In this document: one piece after another, positions 5,934 through 34,186 of the stretch
Layout of the letters: the number at the start of each line of letters is the position of its first letter
Numbering within the stretch: position 1 is the first letter of the stretch
DNA from: a virus
Lineage: Duplodnaviria > Heunggongvirae > Uroviricota > Caudoviricetes
Direction: 5' to 3' (one strand)
IMG/VR virus record: IMGVR_UViG_2859810971_000008
Span: 1 to 35,162 of that record
DNA length: 35,162 nucleotides
Position numbers and translations under genes: made by a program
Notes under the pieces: model-generated
Told to the model about the DNA's origin: nothing
The model's input: the letters and a program-made list of their open reading frames with translations, nothing else
The model's database searches: none

Positions 5934-6933
5934 ATGATTGCAATACCAGCCATTCCGCTACCTCCGGCACGCTGCTGCGTCGCTCCACCGTAAACACAGG
6001 CGCCACCGCCGCCGCCGCCATGGCCATTAGCATTAATACCTTCGCCTACAATGGCTTGCGACCCAGCCCCCGCACCAAGGATTGAATCGCCTCCAGGCCC
6101 ACCAATCGCCAGACTGCCAGAAAACCGAATGCCTGGTGAGTTATAACCACTTCCGGATCCGATAATATTGGCACCTGTAAATCCCGGTTCAGTATATGCC
6201 CCATACGGACCAACAACCCCAGGAGCAGTGCCTTCAGCAAGAACATTCCCACCAAGACCACCTTTGGCAATTATGGTATTGCCGAAAGAGGTTGCTCCCC
6301 CGGGAGCACCAACCGACGCACTTGCACCAGTGCCACCATATCCTATTGTCACAGTAGTTACGGTTGGATTATCCACGCGAGCTTTAACATACTCCCCGGA
6401 CATCCCCCGCCACCACAAGCAGCATTATTGGGATAACCGACCTGACAACCACCACCGGCCCCACCACCACCAACAATTTCAACAATAATAAATCTTGTGC
6501 CTTTTGTCGGAGTGTATGTACCTGAGCTTTTAAACACCTGACACTGTATAAGCCTCCCGGAGCCATCTCCCAAACCAAGATTTTCGAGAGCCGTTTTCAC
6601 CGTGCCGTCCGATTTAATATCACCAAACGGATTCTTGCGGCTCAGGTATTCAACAGCAAACCCCGATCCCAGCAATTCAACAAAACCGGGCAGATCACCA
6701 TTATCAAGCACATCCCGTTGCGTTTTATCACTTACAAACTGGGCCAGAGCTGCAGCAATAAAGCTGGCCTGCCGAATAACCTTATTGACTTGCGCACTGG
6801 AGGCTTTCCCTGCTGTAAATCCGGATAAAAGCGCGGGCAACGCTTCCCATTCCTCCTGCGATATAACATTGGCATTTCGATCCGTTGCAAACGCTTTAAA
6901 GTCATTTTTCGCCATCAGAGTAATACTCCCCAT
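5918..6933 (-). CDS. Tail fibre protein, glycine-rich; interrupted by a 1-nt frameshift (two ORF fragments 6358..6933 and 5918..6418)
   Basis: N-terminal fragment [33 protein letters not shown]... is a conserved tail-fibre N-terminus; the C-terminal fragment is Gly-rich. The frames join if the 5-C run at about 6404-6408 were 6 nt. Confidence 0.7.
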
Positions 6934-7595
6934 GCTCCTACATCAAAACCACTGATGAATTCGTTATCCATATCAAAACCAAAAAATTTTGAGCCTTCCG
7001 ATGGGGTTTCCACCGAAGGTGTTTCAATGCCACCCGCCCATACCCCGGCAGCTTTTACTGTGAGATACCCCTGTTTAATTGCCGCAATTAACTCACGCGA
7101 TACATCTGAAATATCAGTATCAGGAAAGACCCAGACCGATATCGTCATGTCCTGGTTATCGACTATCTGCATTCGCAGCCCGGATCCTGCTGTTGCAGCG
7201 TCAAGAATTGCCGGAAGCGAATCATTCCGTCCATCCCAGTTATTAATCGCAATCTTCGCTTTAAGAATGACACGATAAGTTTCATCGCTGAGGTACATGT
7301 ATCCGGAATCAGGATCGTATGGTCCCTGCCATACCCCCTGATCATATCCAAGCCCGTCGGTATCCCAGCTGAAATAGACACCTGAGATAGGCTGGCTGAC
7401 AACACGGCTACGTCCGATCCACAATCCCAGAATGTCAAGTTGCACACCAACCGCAGAGTCAATATCAAATGCAGTAATCAGCCCTCTGGTGGCAGCCGCA
7501 ACATCAATAAGCGGCCGGGTCATCAGATCAACATGCGCAAGAAATTTAGGTTTGGTGGCGTGGTAGTTCGTGATTAGTTCGGTGTATTTGCTCAT
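6915..7595 (-). CDS. Tail/baseplate protein (P2 gpI / Mu gp48-like, DUF2313-type)
   Basis: 226 aa ORF between baseplate J and the tail fibre gene, the conserved position of gpI/gp48-like proteins. Family assignment by position and recalled sequence character. Confidence 0.55.
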
Positions 7596-7605
7596 GACTC
7601 CACCG

Positions 7606-8790
7606 TTATAACGATATTTTCCGGGGTACAGGACGCAGATTCGTTGTATCTGATATCAATGTTTGATGACGACAAAGCCCCGGGGATTTCCCAATCGTCA
7701 GTTCCTGAATATCGTAATAGCGTGCATTCCCGCCACTCACCACGCCAAGATTCGCCGGTGAGTAAATGCGACTTAAAAGGACCGAATCACCAATCGTCAA
7801 ACTATTGATATAGTCGGAAATAGCCTGCTGGATCTGCTGCCCTATCTGTGAGGTATAACCCGTAAAAACTTTTAATTTAATCCGGGCATAAACAGGCACA
7901 TCACTGGAACGCGAGAATTTGATTACATGGGGATTGCCGTATTTATCCGGAACCGTAACGGATGTTGTACCGTGAGTGGCTGTCCCCTGGCCTTTATTCC
8001 CTCTGATAGCCTGAGCAATATCCGTCACATCACCGCCATCCACAATTACAGCAACAGAGTGTGGCGGTAACCCGTTACCGTCCTCCGAACCAGTATCGTT
8101 TTCATAGAGTTTGTGGCGGGTTACACCGGTAACATTAGAAACAGCACCATCCAGTGCTTCAAATGGGGTTATTGATGGCAACGCAACACTTTGCGACTGG
8201 CGGATACGTAACTCAGCATCAGTTTCTGCCGGAGAGCCAACAGTAGCCGCAGCAGGATTAGTTACCGAAACCCAGCCACGGGTTGGCGTATTAATTTCAG
8301 TGATAGTTCCAGCCAGCGCCGCCACTGCACCACTGACGGAACATGTTGCGGTCGCCATCACTGTACCATCCACGCCGACCACCACTGAAGCAGGCAAACG
8401 CCATATCACATTATTACTGTCTTTCACGCTGCCATTAATGATGGTTGTTCCGGCAGTTCCTGTAAGAAGCAAATCAACCGTAGAGTTCGTCGCGCCTTTA
8501 CGTGAAATACCATTTATTTTCACGTTACTGGTCAGTGCAGCCCCATAGCCGGTTGCCGGTGAAAAACAGTTGTAGACAGTTATCGCCATATTATTGGCAT
8601 CATGAATCGCCAGCGCCATCAGAGCCACCATCTGGCCGTCTTTGCTGTCCGGTTCGAGGTAGGCATCACTGCCATAAATCTGCTGAAAATAGCTAATCAG
8701 GGTGCTGAGTATCGTCTGATAATCAGGCGCACTGATCCCCTCCGCGGTTACCTTTGCAGATAAACCGAGAGAATCAAGGTTCAGAGCCAT
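7606..8790 (-). CDS. Baseplate J-like protein (P2 gpJ / Mu gp47 family)
   Basis: 394 aa; position between the gp46/W-like and gpI-like genes; size and sequence character typical of baseplate J proteins. Confidence 0.8.
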   Translation of the reverse strand: MALNLDSLGLSAKVTAEGISAPDYQTILSTLISYFQQIYGSDAYLEPDSKDGQMVALMALAIHDANNMAITVYNCFSPATGYGAALTSNVKINGISRKGATNSTVDLLLTGTAGTTIINGSVKDSNNVIWRLPASVVVGVDGTVMATATCSVSGAVAALAGTITEINTPTRGWVSVTNPAAATVGSPAETDAELRIRQSQSVALPSITPFEALDGAVSNVTGVTRHKLYENDTGSEDGNGLPPHSVAVIVDGGDVTDIAQAIRGNKGQGTATHGTTSVTVPDKYGNPHVIKFSRSSDVPVYARIKLKVFTGYTSQIGQQIQQAISDYINSLTIGDSVLLSRIYSPANLGVVSGGNARYYDIQELTIGKSPGLCRHQTLISDTTNLRPVPRKISL

Positions 8791-9143
8791 TACGCCTCCG
8801 ATGTAACAGTCGTTATTCCATAGAGAGTGTCGATTTCAGCGGAAAACATGACACGTCGGGTCGTGGTATCCACCGTCGTATTGAAAGAGAGGATTGATTT
8901 AACGCCCTGCGTTTCGAGGATGCGCTTACGGATCGCCAGGTTGTAAGTTTCTGGTTTTTGCCTGCCCAGCACGGACTGGATCCACGGTGTTCCCTCTGTG
9001 GTATCAAGAAACCATTGCCCATACCACAATTCGAATCGCGTTTTCACAGCCTGCGCCACGGCCTCAGGCGAGTTAATCAGCCAGGTGTCATCACCGCTGC
9101 CAAAGGTGTAATCGCCATCGGCGTCTTCACGTCTGTATCGCAT
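8790..9143 (-). CDS. Baseplate wedge protein (GP46 / gpW-like)
   Basis: 117 aa ORF immediately upstream of baseplate J with overlapping stop/start, the standard gpW/gp46 slot. Confidence 0.6.
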   Translation of the reverse strand: MRYRREDADGDYTFGSGDDTWLINSPEAVAQAVKTRFELWYGQWFLDTTEGTPWIQSVLGRQKPETYNLAIRKRILETQGVKSILSFNTTVDTTTRRVMFSAEIDTLYGITTVTSEA

Positions 9144-9894
9144 CAGTTTACCCCGTCGGTACTGCTTCCACCACGCTGAACACCACCATGAGTGTGTGTA
9201 TCATCGATTGGCTTGCCATTAGCCTTCACGCTCCCCAAAAACTCAACAGCACCAGTGATTTTTGAAGCCACACCAGAAACCACAGACCCCACCATGCCCC
9301 CCATCCAGGTTAACAGGCCATGAATGGTTACTTTCTCAGAAAAATCAGCCAGAGGGGCAACCACATCAAGCCCCCGGGAGCAACAATTTTAATTTTCCTG
9401 GTATCAGGATTAAGCTCAAAATAGGTGCTGCCGTCATCACTACGCAACTGTGTGGCACTGGTATTAATACCGCTAATCTTCCTTGCCTGCGACTGGGGAC
9501 CGACAATACAAAACGCATCCGATAAATCATGCATTCTGTCATCGACCGGCTCCTGTATCCCGCCACTCTGCCACCAGAAATCAATACAACGATCGGCAAA
9601 AATCACCAAACATTCATCACCGGCTTTTACCGGAAAAGTCAACGTGCAGCCTCCGCCGCGCGGGAATACCACTGGCACATCCACCAGCAATGGGTAATTT
9701 TTGGTAATGCGGTTGCCGTCGTTATCAATTTCAACGTAACGGATAGCAGGCTGTACAACCGCCGTCACCGCATCAGGAGCGAATGACTGAACAATGCCAG
9801 GCAAGGCGACACGGATCTGGTTCTTTGTTGTTTCCCGTTCAGATTTGAATGTTTCAGCAAGGTCGCCGCTGCGGGTCTGGTCAGATACTGCCAT
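9143..9894 (-). CDS. Baseplate assembly/spike protein V (Mu gp45-like); interrupted by a 1-nt frameshift (fragments 9328..9894 and 9143..9364)
   Basis: 188 aa N-terminal fragment plus 73 aa C-terminal fragment in another frame; the frames join (…KIVAPGGLDVVAPLADFSEK…) if the 5-C run at about 9371-9375 were 6 nt. GGAG Shine-Dalgarno ahead of the ATG at 9894. Confidence 0.6.
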
Positions 9895-9912
9895 TTAGTA
9901 GGCTCCAGAAAG

Positions 9913-9936
9913 CAAAAAACCCGCCGGGTGGCGGGT
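9913..9936 (-). terminator. Rho-independent terminator after the moron gene
   Basis: Minus-strand ACCCGCC-ACCC-GGCGGGT hairpin followed by TTTTTTGCTTT, 18 nt after the stop of the 79-aa gene. Confidence 0.6.
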
Positions 9937-9953
9937 TCATTATTGAAGTTTCA

Positions 9954-30834: not shown

Positions 30835-31294
30835 GTTTCACTCCTGCTTTGGCTAGTCTGTAAACACCAACAAGGCGCTCTGCGAACGCCCTGTTATTTG
30901 CTGCGGCTACCACTAATCCCTCAGGTGAATCAGGGTGTCGAATCTCTTCTTTTTCCTGGTATTTCTTACGACGTTTTGGCATAATTACTCCTGTGGATTG
31001 ATCCAGTCTTTCTACATCAGGCCTCGAAGAATTCGCCGTTCTTCGGGCTTTTTCTTTTGTCAGCATTCTGGCTACTTGCTTAGCCAGTTCCGCCAACTCC
31101 TCGTCTTCAACACCCCATTCAAGAACAGCCAGAAGCATTCCCATTTTTGGGATGAAGCTGTCTTTCCATCGCGAAATTTGCGATTCATTAATCCCTAACG
31201 CGTCGGCAACCTTTCGCTGACCACGTACAGCAATTCGATTCAGGATGTTGCTTGTAATTGCATTCGCTTTCTTGCGAGTACTTGTAAGTTGCAT
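30821..31294 (-). CDS. cII: CII-like transcriptional activator
   Basis: Contains ...GINESQISRWKDSFIPKMGMLLAVLEWGV..., resembling lambda CII (…SQISRWKRDWIPKFSMLLAVLEWGV…). Start chosen at the ATG at 31292-31294 (MQLTS) behind AAGGAAA. Confidence 0.65.
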   Translation of the reverse strand: MQLTSTRKKANAITSNILNRIAVRGQRKVADALGINESQISRWKDSFIPKMGMLLAVLEWGVEDEELAELAKQVARMLTKEKARRTANSSRPDVERLDQSTGVIMPKRRKKYQEKEEIRHPDSPEGLVVAAANNRAFAERLVGVYRLAKAGVKHGRR

Positions 31295-31363
31295 ATGTAA
31301 GTATTTCCTTAGATAACAATTGATTGAATGTATGCAAATAAATGCATACACCATAGGTGTGGC

Positions 31364-31395
31364 TTAATTTGATGCCCTTTTTCAGGGCTGGGATG
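31364..31395 (-). promoter_or_regulatory. nutR (boxA + boxB) N-utilisation site
   Basis: Minus strand CGCTCTTACA (boxA) followed by GCCCTGAAAAAGGGC (boxB hairpin) between cro and cII, as in lambda nutR. Confidence 0.7.
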
Positions 31396-31413
31396 TGTAA
31401 GAGCGGGAATGTC

Positions 31414-31629
31414 TTAAGCGGCTTTGTGTTCCGGCGGGAACACGTCATCAAGACTGACTTTTGCGCCTAACTTGTTTAGGCACTCAACAAGAGCACGGCA
31501 TGTTTTAAGGTCTGGGAAGCGACGACCAGATTCCCAATGTCCGATAGCTCCCTGTGTGCATCCAACTGCCTTAGCAAGTGTTGTTTGAGAGATATTCAGT
31601 GACTCTCGATATTTTCGTAGTTTGCTCAT
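31414..31629 (-). CDS. cro: Cro-like HTH repressor (XRE family)
   Basis: 71 aa from the ATG at 31627-31629 (MSKLRKYRESLNISQTTLAKAVGCTQGAIGHWESG...) preceded by GGAGGG; divergent from cI. Confidence 0.6.
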   Translation of the reverse strand: MSKLRKYRESLNISQTTLAKAVGCTQGAIGHWESGRRFPDLKTCRALVECLNKLGAKVSLDDVFPPEHKAA

Positions 31630-31649
31630 ATGCCCTCCATAGTAACCAT

Positions 31650-31732
31650 GAAACAATAATACGATATGTACTTTTAGAATGCAAACAAAAAAATACATCT
31701 TGTGCATGGATGGTTTTAGTACAGAGCGTAAT
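31650..31732. promoter_or_regulatory. Right operator region: pR (-35 TTGCAT at 31679-31684, -10 TATTAT at 31656-31661, minus strand) with two operator-like dyads
   Basis: Dyads AATACGATATGTACT (31658-31672) and AGTACAGAGCGTAAT (31718-31732) share half-sites with the pL dyad; 17-nt spacer between the -35 and -10. Confidence 0.5.
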
Positions 31733-31741
31733 AATAAGGGT

Positions 31742-32401
31742 ATGAAAATGAAATGGTATGAACTGGCTAGATCCAGAATGAAAGAGCTCGGCATAACTCA
31801 AGAGAAGTTAGCTGAAGAGCTTGGTATGACGCAGGGTGGAATTGGTCACTGGTTGCGCGGATCTCGTCATCCATCTCTTGACGAGATTGGTGTGGTGTTT
31901 AAATACCTTGGTATTGATAACGTCTCATTCAACCACGACGGTACATTTTCACCTGTTGGCGAATACTCATCTGCCCCCGTTAAAAAACAATATGAGTACC
32001 CTGTTTTTTCTCATGTTCAGGCCGGGATGTTCTCGCCTGAGCTTAGAACCTTTACCAAAGGTGATGCGGAGAGATGGGTCAGCACAACCAAAAAAGCCAG
32101 TGATTGTGCGTTCTGGCTTGAAGTTGAAGGTAATTCCATGACCGCGCCAACAGGATCCAAGCCAAGCTTTCCTGACGGGATGTTAATTCTCGTTGACCCT
32201 GAGCAGGCTGTTGAGCTAGGTGATTTCTGCATAGCCAGACTTGGTGGTGACGAGTTTACCTTCAAGAAACTGATCAGGGATAGCGGTCAGGTGTTCCTAC
32301 AGCCACTAAACCCGCAATATCCAATGATTCCATGCAATGATAGCTGTTCCGTAGTAGGGAAAGTTATCGCCAGCCAGTGGCCTGAAGAGACATTTAGTTA
32401 A
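31742..32401 (+). CDS. cI: CI repressor (LexA-like S24 peptidase C-terminal domain); hybrid with a lambda-like C-terminus
   Basis: C-terminal ~100 aa (…[93 protein letters not shown]) match the lambda CI C-terminal domain from memory; the N-terminal HTH domain differs. Start at MKMKWYEL, since the track's upstream ATG lies in pR. Confidence 0.9.
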
Positions 32402-32433
32402 CAGCCTCACAACTCTAAAACACACAACAATAA

Positions 32434-32461
32434 CCCGACCTTAGCGTCGGGTTTTCTTTTT
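32434..32461 (+). terminator. Rho-independent terminator after cI
   Basis: CCCGAC-CTTAGC-GTCGGG hairpin followed by TTTTCTTTTT; no rex genes between cI and pL. Confidence 0.7.
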
Positions 32462-32526
32462 CCAAAATATAAACCCATTAAATACAAAGCGTTATAAAAA
32501 ACTAATTATATTTAGAACATTTTGTA

Positions 32527-32562
32527 TTGACTCGATAAAGTACAAATCGTACTATTTAGCCA
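32527..32562 (+). promoter_or_regulatory. pL promoter with overlapping operator dyad
   Basis: -35 TTGACT (32527-32532), 17-nt spacer, -10 TACTAT (32550-32555); the transcript would begin near ATCAGCAGG as in lambda pL; dyad AGTACAAATCGTACT at 32539-32553 overlaps the -10. Confidence 0.6.
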
Positions 32563-32593
32563 TCAGCAGGACGTGCTAACCACCATGAAGGTG

Positions 32594-32625
32594 ACGCTCT
32601 TAAAAATTAAGCCCTGAAGAAGGGC
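32594..32625 (+). promoter_or_regulatory. nutL (boxA CGCTCTTAA + boxB GCCCTGAAGAAGGGC)
   Basis: Exact lambda-like boxA at 32594-32602 and boxB hairpin at 32611-32625, downstream of pL and upstream of N. Confidence 0.8.
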
Positions 32626-32783
32626 AGCATTCAAAGCAGAAGGCTTTGGTGTGTGTGATACGAAACGAAGCATTGGCCGGAAGTGCGAATCCGGATTAGC
32701 TGCCAATGTGCCATTGCGAGGTGTTTTCGTTCAGGACTACGACTCCCACACACAACCAAAGCTAACTGACAGGAGAATCCAGA

Positions 32784-32878
32784 TGAATGCACAAACACGC
32801 CGCCGCGAACGTCGCGCAGAGAAACAGGCTCAATGGAAAGCAGCAAATCCCCTGTTGGTTGGGGTAAACGCAAAATGA
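32784..32878 (+). pseudogene. N: Antiterminator N, truncated after codon 31 by the IS600-like insertion
   Basis: MNAQTRRRERRAEKQAQWKAANPLLVGVNAK matches the lambda N arginine-rich boxB-binding N-terminus as recalled; reading frame stops at the TGA of the IS terminal TGAGGTG. Confidence 0.8.
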
Positions 32879-32918
32879 GGTGTACTGGCAATAGCGGACA
32901 CTACCATTTGTTCTTTTT

Positions 32919-33737
32919 TTAAGCAGCCATCTGATGATATTTTTCCCTGAAGGCTGCCGGGGAGATATTCCCCAGACGAGAGTGACGACGCTGACGATTG
33001 TAGAAAATCTCAATGTATTCCCGTATTACTGAGATGGCCTCATCCCGGCTCTTAAAACGATAGTGGCTCAGGCTTTCATTTTTCAGCGTTCCCCAGAAGC
33101 TTTCCATCGGAGCGTTGTCGTAACAGTTACCTTTACGCGACATTGATGTTTTCAGACCAAACTGCTCCTGTATGACCCGGTAATCGTATGCGCAGTACTG
33201 TGAACCTCGATCAGAGTGGTGGATTAGCCCGGCAGGTGGGCGCTGGCTCCTGAGCGCCATAAACAGGGCTTTACCTGTCAGCTCTTTTGTCATGCGCTCT
33301 CCCATGGCGTAGCCGACAATTTCGCACGTATAAACATCTTTGATGCCAGCGAGGTACAACCATCCCTCCTGTGTGGCAACATACGTCAGGTCCGCCACCC
33401 AGACCTGATTTGGTGCTGTAGGAGCGAACGTCTGGTTCAGCAGATTTGGCGCAACTGGCAGATTGTGGTTCGGGTTCGTAGTCGCTCTGAACTTGCGTTT
33501 CTGCTTACAGCGTAGCCTCAGCTCCTTACGAAGACGTGCCAGTCGGTCACGACCAACGATGATGCCATTCTCTGCCAGCTCCGTCTGGAGCCGCCGGGTT
33601 CCATATGTTTCGCGAGTGCGGATATGTGCCACCTTAATCTCCAGTTTTAGCCGCTCATCACTTTGTTTTCTGTCTGAGGGTTCATGCTGTACCCAGTTGT
33701 AATAACCGCTCCTGGATACACCAAATACCTGACACAT
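32919..33737 (-). CDS. IS600-like transposase OrfB
   Basis: 272 aa IS3-family DDE transposase (…HSDRGSQYCAYDYR…YDNAPMESFWGTLK…). Confidence 0.8.
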   Translation of the reverse strand: MCQVFGVSRSGYYNWVQHEPSDRKQSDERLKLEIKVAHIRTRETYGTRRLQTELAENGIIVGRDRLARLRKELRLRCKQKRKFRATTNPNHNLPVAPNLLNQTFAPTAPNQVWVADLTYVATQEGWLYLAGIKDVYTCEIVGYAMGERMTKELTGKALFMALRSQRPPAGLIHHSDRGSQYCAYDYRVIQEQFGLKTSMSRKGNCYDNAPMESFWGTLKNESLSHYRFKSRDEAISVIREYIEIFYNRQRRHSRLGNISPAAFREKYHQMAA

Positions 33738-33772
33738 CGCTTCAATGGGAAATTGTTGTCGCCATTGTTCGA

Positions 33773-34075
33773 TTAACGCGTATTTTTCAGCGACTCCTGT
33801 GCAAAATACGCTGTTGCTTTTTTTAATATATCGCGCTCAAGGCGAGCTTCATTTAACGCCTTACGCAGTTGCAGAATTTCAGATTCCAGTTCAGCCACCG
33901 TGCGGGAACCAGGAGTACCGAGCCCTTTTCTGGCGGCGGTAACCCATTGTCCTAAAGTGCCTTCAGGAAGGGATAATCGGGAAGCGCCTTCACTGATCGA
34001 AAGTTGATTTTCAAGAACCGTTCTGACAGCTTCGGCTTTGAACTCTTTAGAGTAACGTTGGGTTTTTCTGCTCAT
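33773..34075 (-). CDS. IS600-like transposase OrfA
   Basis: 100 aa; MSRKTQRYSKEFKAEAVRTVLENQLSISEGASRLSLPEGTLGQWV... HTH plus leucine zipper typical of IS3 OrfA. Confidence 0.8.
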   Translation of the reverse strand: MSRKTQRYSKEFKAEAVRTVLENQLSISEGASRLSLPEGTLGQWVTAARKGLGTPGSRTVAELESEILQLRKALNEARLERDILKKATAYFAQESLKNTR

Positions 34076-34186
34076 TATTAGCTCCTTCTGATGCCATTCT
34101 ATTTCAGGAAGGAGTGTCCGTTAAACTCAGGCTACCTCAGTGCACCCGCCATCGATATCAGCATGGGTAGACAGAAAGATGAGAGA

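Follow-up and report, generated by a model that had tools for sequence, protein, structure and literature searches.

Very probably a lambdoid switch of the VT2-Sakai immunity type, with a hybrid CI repressor, in a degraded prophage

The closest described relatives of the immunity region analysed here belong to Stx phages. Smith et al. 2012 (PMC3430580) placed VT2-Sa, Stx2 phage II, YYZ-2008 and 1717 in the repressor class CI2c, whose members have a carboxy terminus as in lambda CI and a unique amino terminus, implying different DNA binding (PMC3430580). The operators of VT2-Sakai are listed in Table S1 of PMC10742460 as six 17-mers, homologues of the sites described below. AP005153, the record of an Stx1-converting phage, likewise marks six 'putative operators', half of them in OR and half in OL. 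Lambda CI is published to bind the VT2-Sakai operators with an apparent Kd of 3.7-6.4 uM, a value that is uninformative on cognate recognition. Binding of the cognate CI or Cro to these operators was not found in the literature searched, where only lambda CI appears on VT2-Sakai operators.

The window, by which we mean the whole analysed stretch of 35,162 nucleotides of viral DNA, carries its immunity region at 30.8-32.9 kb, in reverse of the usual lambda map. The gene order is cII-cro-OR-cI-terminator-OL/pL-nutL-N, with matching Pfam families. We interpret the region as a standard lambdoid lysis/lysogeny switch of the VT2-Sakai (Sp5)/Stx2 phage II/2851/Nil2 immunity type in a degraded prophage, and give this reading a probability of about 0.9. 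Its genes, promoters and signals other than operators are as follows.

30821..31297, minus strand: cII (Pfam Phage_CII, E=7.5e-41), frameshifted near its 3' end
31414..31629, minus strand: cro, 71 aa, HTH_3 (Pfam E=1.5e-12)
31656..31685, minus strand: pR, with -35 TTTGCA at 31685-31680 and -10 TATTAT at 31661-31656 (promoter scan)
31707..31735, plus strand: putative pRM, with a weak -35 TGGATG at 31707-31712 and -10 AATAAT at 31730-31735 (sequence reading)
31748..32401, plus strand: cI, 217 aa, HTH in residues 1-81, lambda-type hinge and S24 domain from Tyr82 (Pfam, alignments)
32432..32453, scoring on both strands: hairpin terminator after cI, 8-bp stem with 5 GC pairs and a T-run (terminator scan)
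32527..32555, plus strand: pL, with -35 TTGACT at 32527-32532 and -10 TACTAT at 32550-32555 (promoter scan)
32595..32625, plus strand: nutL, with boxA CGCTCTTA at 32595-32602 and boxB GCCCTGAAGAAGGGC at 32611-32625, identical to the annotated lambda NutL
32783..32878, plus strand: remnant of N, 31 aa, arginine-rich motif only (Pfam N36, E=1.3e-20)

The genes cro and cI diverge from a 118-bp intergenic region that holds pR and the putative pRM, which is the layout of a lambdoid switch. Both promoters lie at positions annotated in AP005153, pR at the 'putative major rightward promoter' and pRM at the 'putative maintenance promoter for CI'. The consensus promoter scan missed pRM, as expected of an activator-dependent promoter. 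Initiation from the pRM -10 is predicted at about 31742, on the first base of an in-frame ATG that is conserved in all relatives as an alternative start of cI. The pRM message may thus be leaderless, as in lambda, while leadered transcripts could use the ATG at 31748, which is served by a proper Shine-Dalgarno sequence (AAGGG). On the far side of cI, the pL transcript would start near 32562, and a lambda-like leader begins at CATCAGCAGGACG, directly downstream of pL. The sequence-only reading had stated that rex genes are missing between cI and pL, and this is borne out. No plus-strand ORF of at least 40 aa lies between the cI stop at 32401 and pL, and the 78 bp from the stop codon to OL3 hold only the terminator, leaving no room for rex. 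An Rfam scan of 30000-33000 returned nothing at gathering thresholds.

CI has an N-terminal HTH and a C-terminal LexA/S24 domain with an Ala-Gly site and a Ser/Lys dyad, the architecture of a lambdoid switch repressor. Pfam places HTH_3 at residues 9-56 and Peptidase_S24 at residues 85-207, and Ala92-Gly93, Ser130 and Lys173 align with lambda Ala111-Gly112, Ser149 and Lys192. The two parts differ sharply in their relation to lambda, which agrees with the hybrid repressor proposed from the sequence alone. Of the 136 residues from Tyr82 onwards, 132 are those of lambda CI and four differ (97% identity), against about 25% identity over the N-terminal 81 residues. The DNA homology of cI to lambda starts abruptly at about 31991 and extends to the stop codon at about 93% identity. 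CI thus consists of a phage-specific HTH and, from a junction shortly ahead of the Ala-Gly cleavage site, a hinge and S24 self-cleavage/oligomerisation domain of lambda type. A PDB search retrieved lambda CI structures at E=5e-95, and 3BDN, 1F39 and 2HO0 match the C-terminal part only. For the N-terminal domain no close solved structure was found in the PDB, the best match being a generic HTH (E=1e-4).

The N-terminal domain is that of a known immunity type. At a threshold of at least 95%, 63 phage records encode a domain that is 96-100% identical, including Stx1-converting phage, Stx2 II, 2851, the PA series, ev017, phi458 and Louie. Only 3 of the 81 residues differ from the Stx-phage group (D45S, E46D and V59I), all outside helices 2-3, as is expected of one and the same recognition domain. 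Cro is 97-99% identical to the Cro proteins of AP005153 and vB_EcoP-720R6, and two of its 71 residues, neither of them in the HTH, distinguish it from that of the Stx-phage group. CI and Cro have the recognition-helix motif TQG(G/A)IGHW in common, which fits the use of one operator set by both proteins. Across cro-OR-cI, the DNA is 92.7% identical to the Stx1-converting phage AP005153, Stx2 phage II, Nil2, 2851 and the PA series. The known immunity matched by the N-terminal domain, at 96%, is that of the VT2-Sakai group, and the operators of this group are homologues of the dyads that the sequence-only reading had picked out. The condition that this reading had named for its own refutation, a known immunity with other operators, thus turns out in its favour. 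All six operators annotated in AP005153 map to sites in the window, listed here in map order.

31657-31673: OR1, TAATACGATATGTACTT, covers the pR -10 and spacer; homologue of the VT2-Sakai/AP005153 OR1; half-sites invariant in relatives
31691-31707: OR2, AAATACATCTTGTGCAT, poorest match to the consensus; abuts the pRM -35; homologue of the annotated OR2
31717-31733: OR3, TAGTACAGAGCGTAATA, overlaps the pRM -10; identical to the annotated AP005153/VT2-Sakai OR3
32480-32496: OL3, AAATACAAAGCGTTATA, homologue of the annotated OL3; half-sites invariant in 39 distinct relatives
32513-32529: OL2, TAGAACATTTTGTATTG, overlaps the pL -35; homologue of an annotated operator
32538-32554: OL1, AAGTACAAATCGTACTA, perfect dyad; covers the pL spacer and -10

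At these same six positions, 11 of the 12 half-sites agree fully with the AP005153 annotation and with the published VT2-Sakai set, which places the switch in the same operator group. The one differing base is in OL3, where the half-site reads GTTAT here and GTTGT in AP005153. A distinct immunity specificity built on a lambda dimerisation scaffold had been proposed for this locus. Sequence comparison and the conservation of the operators support this interpretation, in that a non-lambda HTH and non-lambda operators go with a lambda hinge, cleavage and oligomerisation domain. The specificity is not new, being a common type (CI2c) that has already been described and annotated, and the domain idea has been published as well. 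It is improbable that D45S, E46D and V59I, together with the different inter-operator sequences, render the module heteroimmune to the VT2-Sakai group. In favour of it, identity to the Stx phages is no higher than about 90% in the OR DNA, and the OL3 base noted above differs. But CI helix 2 and helix 3 are identical, the few Cro differences spare the HTH, and with nearly all half-sites unchanged between the groups the differences fall in operator centres and spacers.

Three of the six operators had been recognised as dyads in the sequence-only reading. AATACGATATGTACT at 31658-31672 is part of OR1 and overlaps pR, AGTACAGAGCGTAAT at 31718-31732 is part of OR3 on the pRM side, and AGTACAAATCGTACT at 32539-32553 is part of OL1 and overlaps pL. 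All three are present at these promoters as described, but the set was incomplete, as OR2, OL2 and OL3 had been missed. The search for more dyad copies that had been suggested yielded these three further operators by way of their annotated homologues, and no extra copy at one mismatch or fewer. The region thus has multiple dyad-symmetric operators at both OR and OL, overlapping pR, pRM and pL in the manner of a lambdoid switch. The consensus from the 12 half-sites is (T/A)A(G/A)TAC(A/G), with AC at positions 5-6 in all 12 and A at position 2 in 11.

Inverted repeats can arise by accident in AT-rich DNA, and the intergenic DNA here has a GC content of 0.32-0.36. We nevertheless consider it highly improbable that the dyads are chance palindromes rather than protein-binding sites. 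Allowing at most one mismatch, AGTACN5GTACT has exactly three matches in the 35 kb window, all of them in OR or OL, against a mean of 0.52 in a shuffle control in which 2 of 100 shuffles reached three. A search that allows two mismatches shows no enrichment (10 found vs 7.6 expected), which speaks for chance. The loose consensus by itself therefore proves little, and both the one-mismatch test and an analysis of conservation are needed. An operator PWM built from the annotated operators of relatives gives five of the six sites as the top five of the window; this is weak evidence and was not relied upon, since the PWM derives from homologous DNA. Local shuffles of the AT-rich intergenic DNA never reproduced the sites, a test that is weak for the same reason. 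With a PWM score of 11.2, OR2 lies within the range reached by shuffles and fits the consensus poorly. Another match, CACTACCATTTGTTCTT at 32899-32915, lies in the end of an IS just past the truncation of N and scores 12.2, above OR2. It is probably a chance match, its score being within the shuffle range. It also speaks against accidental repeats that the sites coincide exactly with -10 and -35 elements of three promoters, an arrangement known from lambda.

Conservation among relatives argues in the same direction. The comparison drew on 80 IMG/VR loci encoding this CI and on phage and E. coli records, which gave 29 distinct OR and 39 distinct OL sequences. In this set, variation affects 1 of 60 half-site columns, 9 of 30 columns in operator centres and 61 of 187 columns elsewhere. 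The difference between half-sites and outside columns is significant by Fisher test (p=8e-8). It remains so without OL1 (p=1e-6), which was dropped in a second test because it had served as search anchor. Compared with the intervening and surrounding bases, the half-sites show strong purifying selection, which is not the behaviour of chance palindromes. OR2, for instance, keeps AATAC...GTGCA in relatives, with a centre that reads ATCTT, ACATT, ATATT or ACCTT. Conserved outer bases with variable centres are the pattern expected of sites contacted via their outer bases. The poly-A tract at 31686-31692, just upstream of the pR -35, ranges from A5 to A8 among otherwise near-identical relatives, so that OR1-OR2 spacing in relatives varies from 32 to 35 bp. 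The tract may be UP-element-like or bent. Indels are absent among relatives between OR2 and OR3 and between OL2 and OL1, two stretches whose length is constrained by promoter spacers.

The analysis directly shows the sequences, how the domains are put together, that the operators have annotated homologues and that the half-sites are under purifying selection. The binding, activation, cooperativity, looping and inducibility of this switch are predictions by analogy with lambda. CI dimers would be expected on the six 17-bp operators, with the half-site (T/A)A(G/A)TAC, and Cro would be expected on the same operators. Dimers at OR1 would occlude pR, and dimers at OL1 and OL2 would occlude pL. The end of OR2 is the exact start of the weak pRM -35, which is the geometry of pRM activation by lambda CI. 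From this position directly beside the -35, CI could activate its own transcription as lambda CI does. CI at OR3, over the pRM -10, would turn pRM off and so provide autorepression. The lambda-type C-terminal domain would further be expected to confer RecA-stimulated self-cleavage, pairwise cooperativity and OL-OR looping over 822 bp (about 0.8 kb).

The spacing of operators is not uniformly that of lambda. OR2-OR3 (26 bp vs 23 in lambda) and OL1-OL2 (25 vs 24) are similar, but OR1-OR2 (34 vs 24) and OL2-OL3 (33 vs 20) are wider, so that pairwise cooperativity of the lambda kind cannot be taken for granted. OR2 lies clear of the pR -35, from which it is separated by the poly-A tract, and OR3 is a better consensus site than OR2. 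We raise tentatively, as a rather unlikely variant, that the switch is wired differently from lambda despite its lambda cooperativity domain, either through OR2-OR3 and OL1-OL2 pairing or mainly through the short OL-OR loop. Such wiring would entail another balance of pRM activation and autorepression and another induction threshold. If true, this would be of consequence for the many Stx2a phages that are under the control of the same immunity module.

The region around the switch shows decay on both sides. Two IS3-family elements flank it, at 32876-34130 and 28958-30190. The first, with ORFs on the minus strand at 32919-33737 and 33773-34075, cuts N at codon 31, where the stop TGA is the end of the inserted element; N in the prophage of E. 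coli ST12468 is intact and has 107 aa. The second truncates an O-like replication gene. The window also lacks P, nin and Q, which one would expect to find between O and the lysis/structural genes. In cII, a 1-bp deletion in a C-run at about 31034 (CCCC to CCC relative to the ST12468 prophage) has removed the normal stop, fusing the gene in frame to a downstream 53-aa ORF to give a 158-aa product. The oop-promoter block ACTGGATCAATCCACAGGAGTAATTATG is conserved and intact. CI itself carries Pro157Leu (codon at 32216-32218, in AVE-P-GD), at a position where all 83 fetched relatives and lambda have Pro. Residue 157 corresponds to lambda Pro177 with the initiator Met counted, which rules out its being the lambda cooperativity residue Pro158. 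The IS-flanked arrangement was found in no complete E. coli genome searched.

The prophage is thus degraded, and this copy of CI may not be fully functional. A stronger version holds that the switch is a fossil with the same anatomy that no longer works, either because CI is impaired by Pro157Leu or because the module drifts in a prophage that cannot grow lytically. We find this doubtful but worth weighing. The IS insertions in N and in the O-like gene, the frameshifted cII and a private substitution at an otherwise invariant proline all fit it, as does the fact that neither the Leu157 allele nor the N/IS junction was found in species-representative genomes. Against a fossil, the cI and cro ORFs and the promoters are intact, consensus half-sites are retained in all six operators, and the immunity region has 98-99% identity with the phage records vB_EcoP-720R6, Louie and Dewey. 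Moreover, the substitution affects neither the catalytic Ser/Lys nor the cleavage site, and one such change does not have to abolish CI activity. A standard switch in a degraded prophage stays our preferred reading. If CI is still active, the defective prophage could give its host superinfection immunity to Stx phages of the VT2-Sakai group.

Elsewhere in the window, 6500-25000 holds a block of structural genes (terminase, portal, head, tail tape measure and baseplate), which shares 97% identity with Escherichia phages vB_EcoM-611R5 and 606R2 and about 82% with Salmonella phage SEN34. This DNA thus combines an early region of lambda type with a tail module that bears a baseplate.

The locus is a clean natural case of domain-level mosaicism in lambdoid repressors, of a kind described before, and in this respect adds little that is new. 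The same cI/cro/operator module controls the induction of clinically important Stx phages (Sp5/VT2-Sakai, 2851, Stx2 phage II). The six sites and their conservation pattern provide a ready-made design for testing the operators with their own repressor.

Compared with the Stx phages of the VT2-Sakai group (VT2-Sakai/Sp5, Stx2 phage II, Stx1-converting Morioka V526, 2851, 1717, YYZ-2008 and Nil2), the core of the switch is the same. Their CI has an N-terminal domain of 96% identity, in which the HTH is unchanged, followed by a lambda-type C-terminal domain, their Cro is 97% identical, and three OR and three OL operators have the same promoter overlaps. Outside this core there are differences. 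Homology stops at the cI stop codon, the cII allele differs, and N is annotated as HK97-like in the Stx phages whereas N and nutL are lambda-type here. The Stx phages also have about 1.5 kb of extra ORFs between cI and OL, as opposed to 137 bp in the window. In AP005153 (41300-42790) this interval holds the hypothetical ORFs B55-B57 and b63, in lambda it holds rexAB, and in the window it holds nothing. The cI-OL interval looks like a variable cargo slot.

Closer relatives are found among non-Stx coliphages and prophages. The phages vB_EcoP-720R6, vB_EcoP-683R2, Louie, Dewey and phi458, prophages of E. coli ST12468, H5 and H6, and at least 70 IMG/VR contigs have about 99% DNA identity across cro-OR-cI-OL-nutL-N. 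The compact, rex-less spacing from cI to OL (136-138 bp) recurs in 68 of 75 loci. In these non-Stx relatives CI is identical save at residue 157, where all have Pro, and N, O and cII are intact, unlike in the window.

Lambda has the same overall architecture, including an OR2 next to the pRM -35, and its pL leader, nutL and N arginine-rich motif are alike in the window. It differs in its operators, which are of the TATCACCGC type in lambda and ARTAC-N5-GTAYT here. No operator of the TATCACCGC type occurs in OR or OL, and the only match in the window, at 12079 in structural genes, is at chance level. The OL-OR distance is 2.4 kb in lambda and 0.8 kb here, where lambda rexA and rexB are absent. 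With an N-terminal domain about 25% identical, no lambda operators and no rexA-rexB, the region lacks the features of lambda immunity. Homology to lambda DNA is regained immediately past the pL -10, where it takes in the pL leader, nutL and N. From where this homology breaks and resumes, the non-lambda material is a cassette between lambda-like flanks, made up of cro, OR, the N-terminal domain of cI and the OL operators. It is a natural counterpart of the classical imm434 and imm21 substitutions.

The repressor mosaics of 933W, HK022 and H-19B follow the same principle, with DNA-binding and oligomerisation/cleavage domains reassorted between lambdoid repressors (PMC3202840). H-19B, which is reported to have four OR sites (PMC8065619), was considered as a carrier of the same immunity and ruled out, its repressor having the divergent 933W C-terminal domain (PMC3202840). 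This divergent domain, common to 933W and H-19B, is reported not to support cooperative binding, whereas the repressor described here has the C-terminal domain of lambda.
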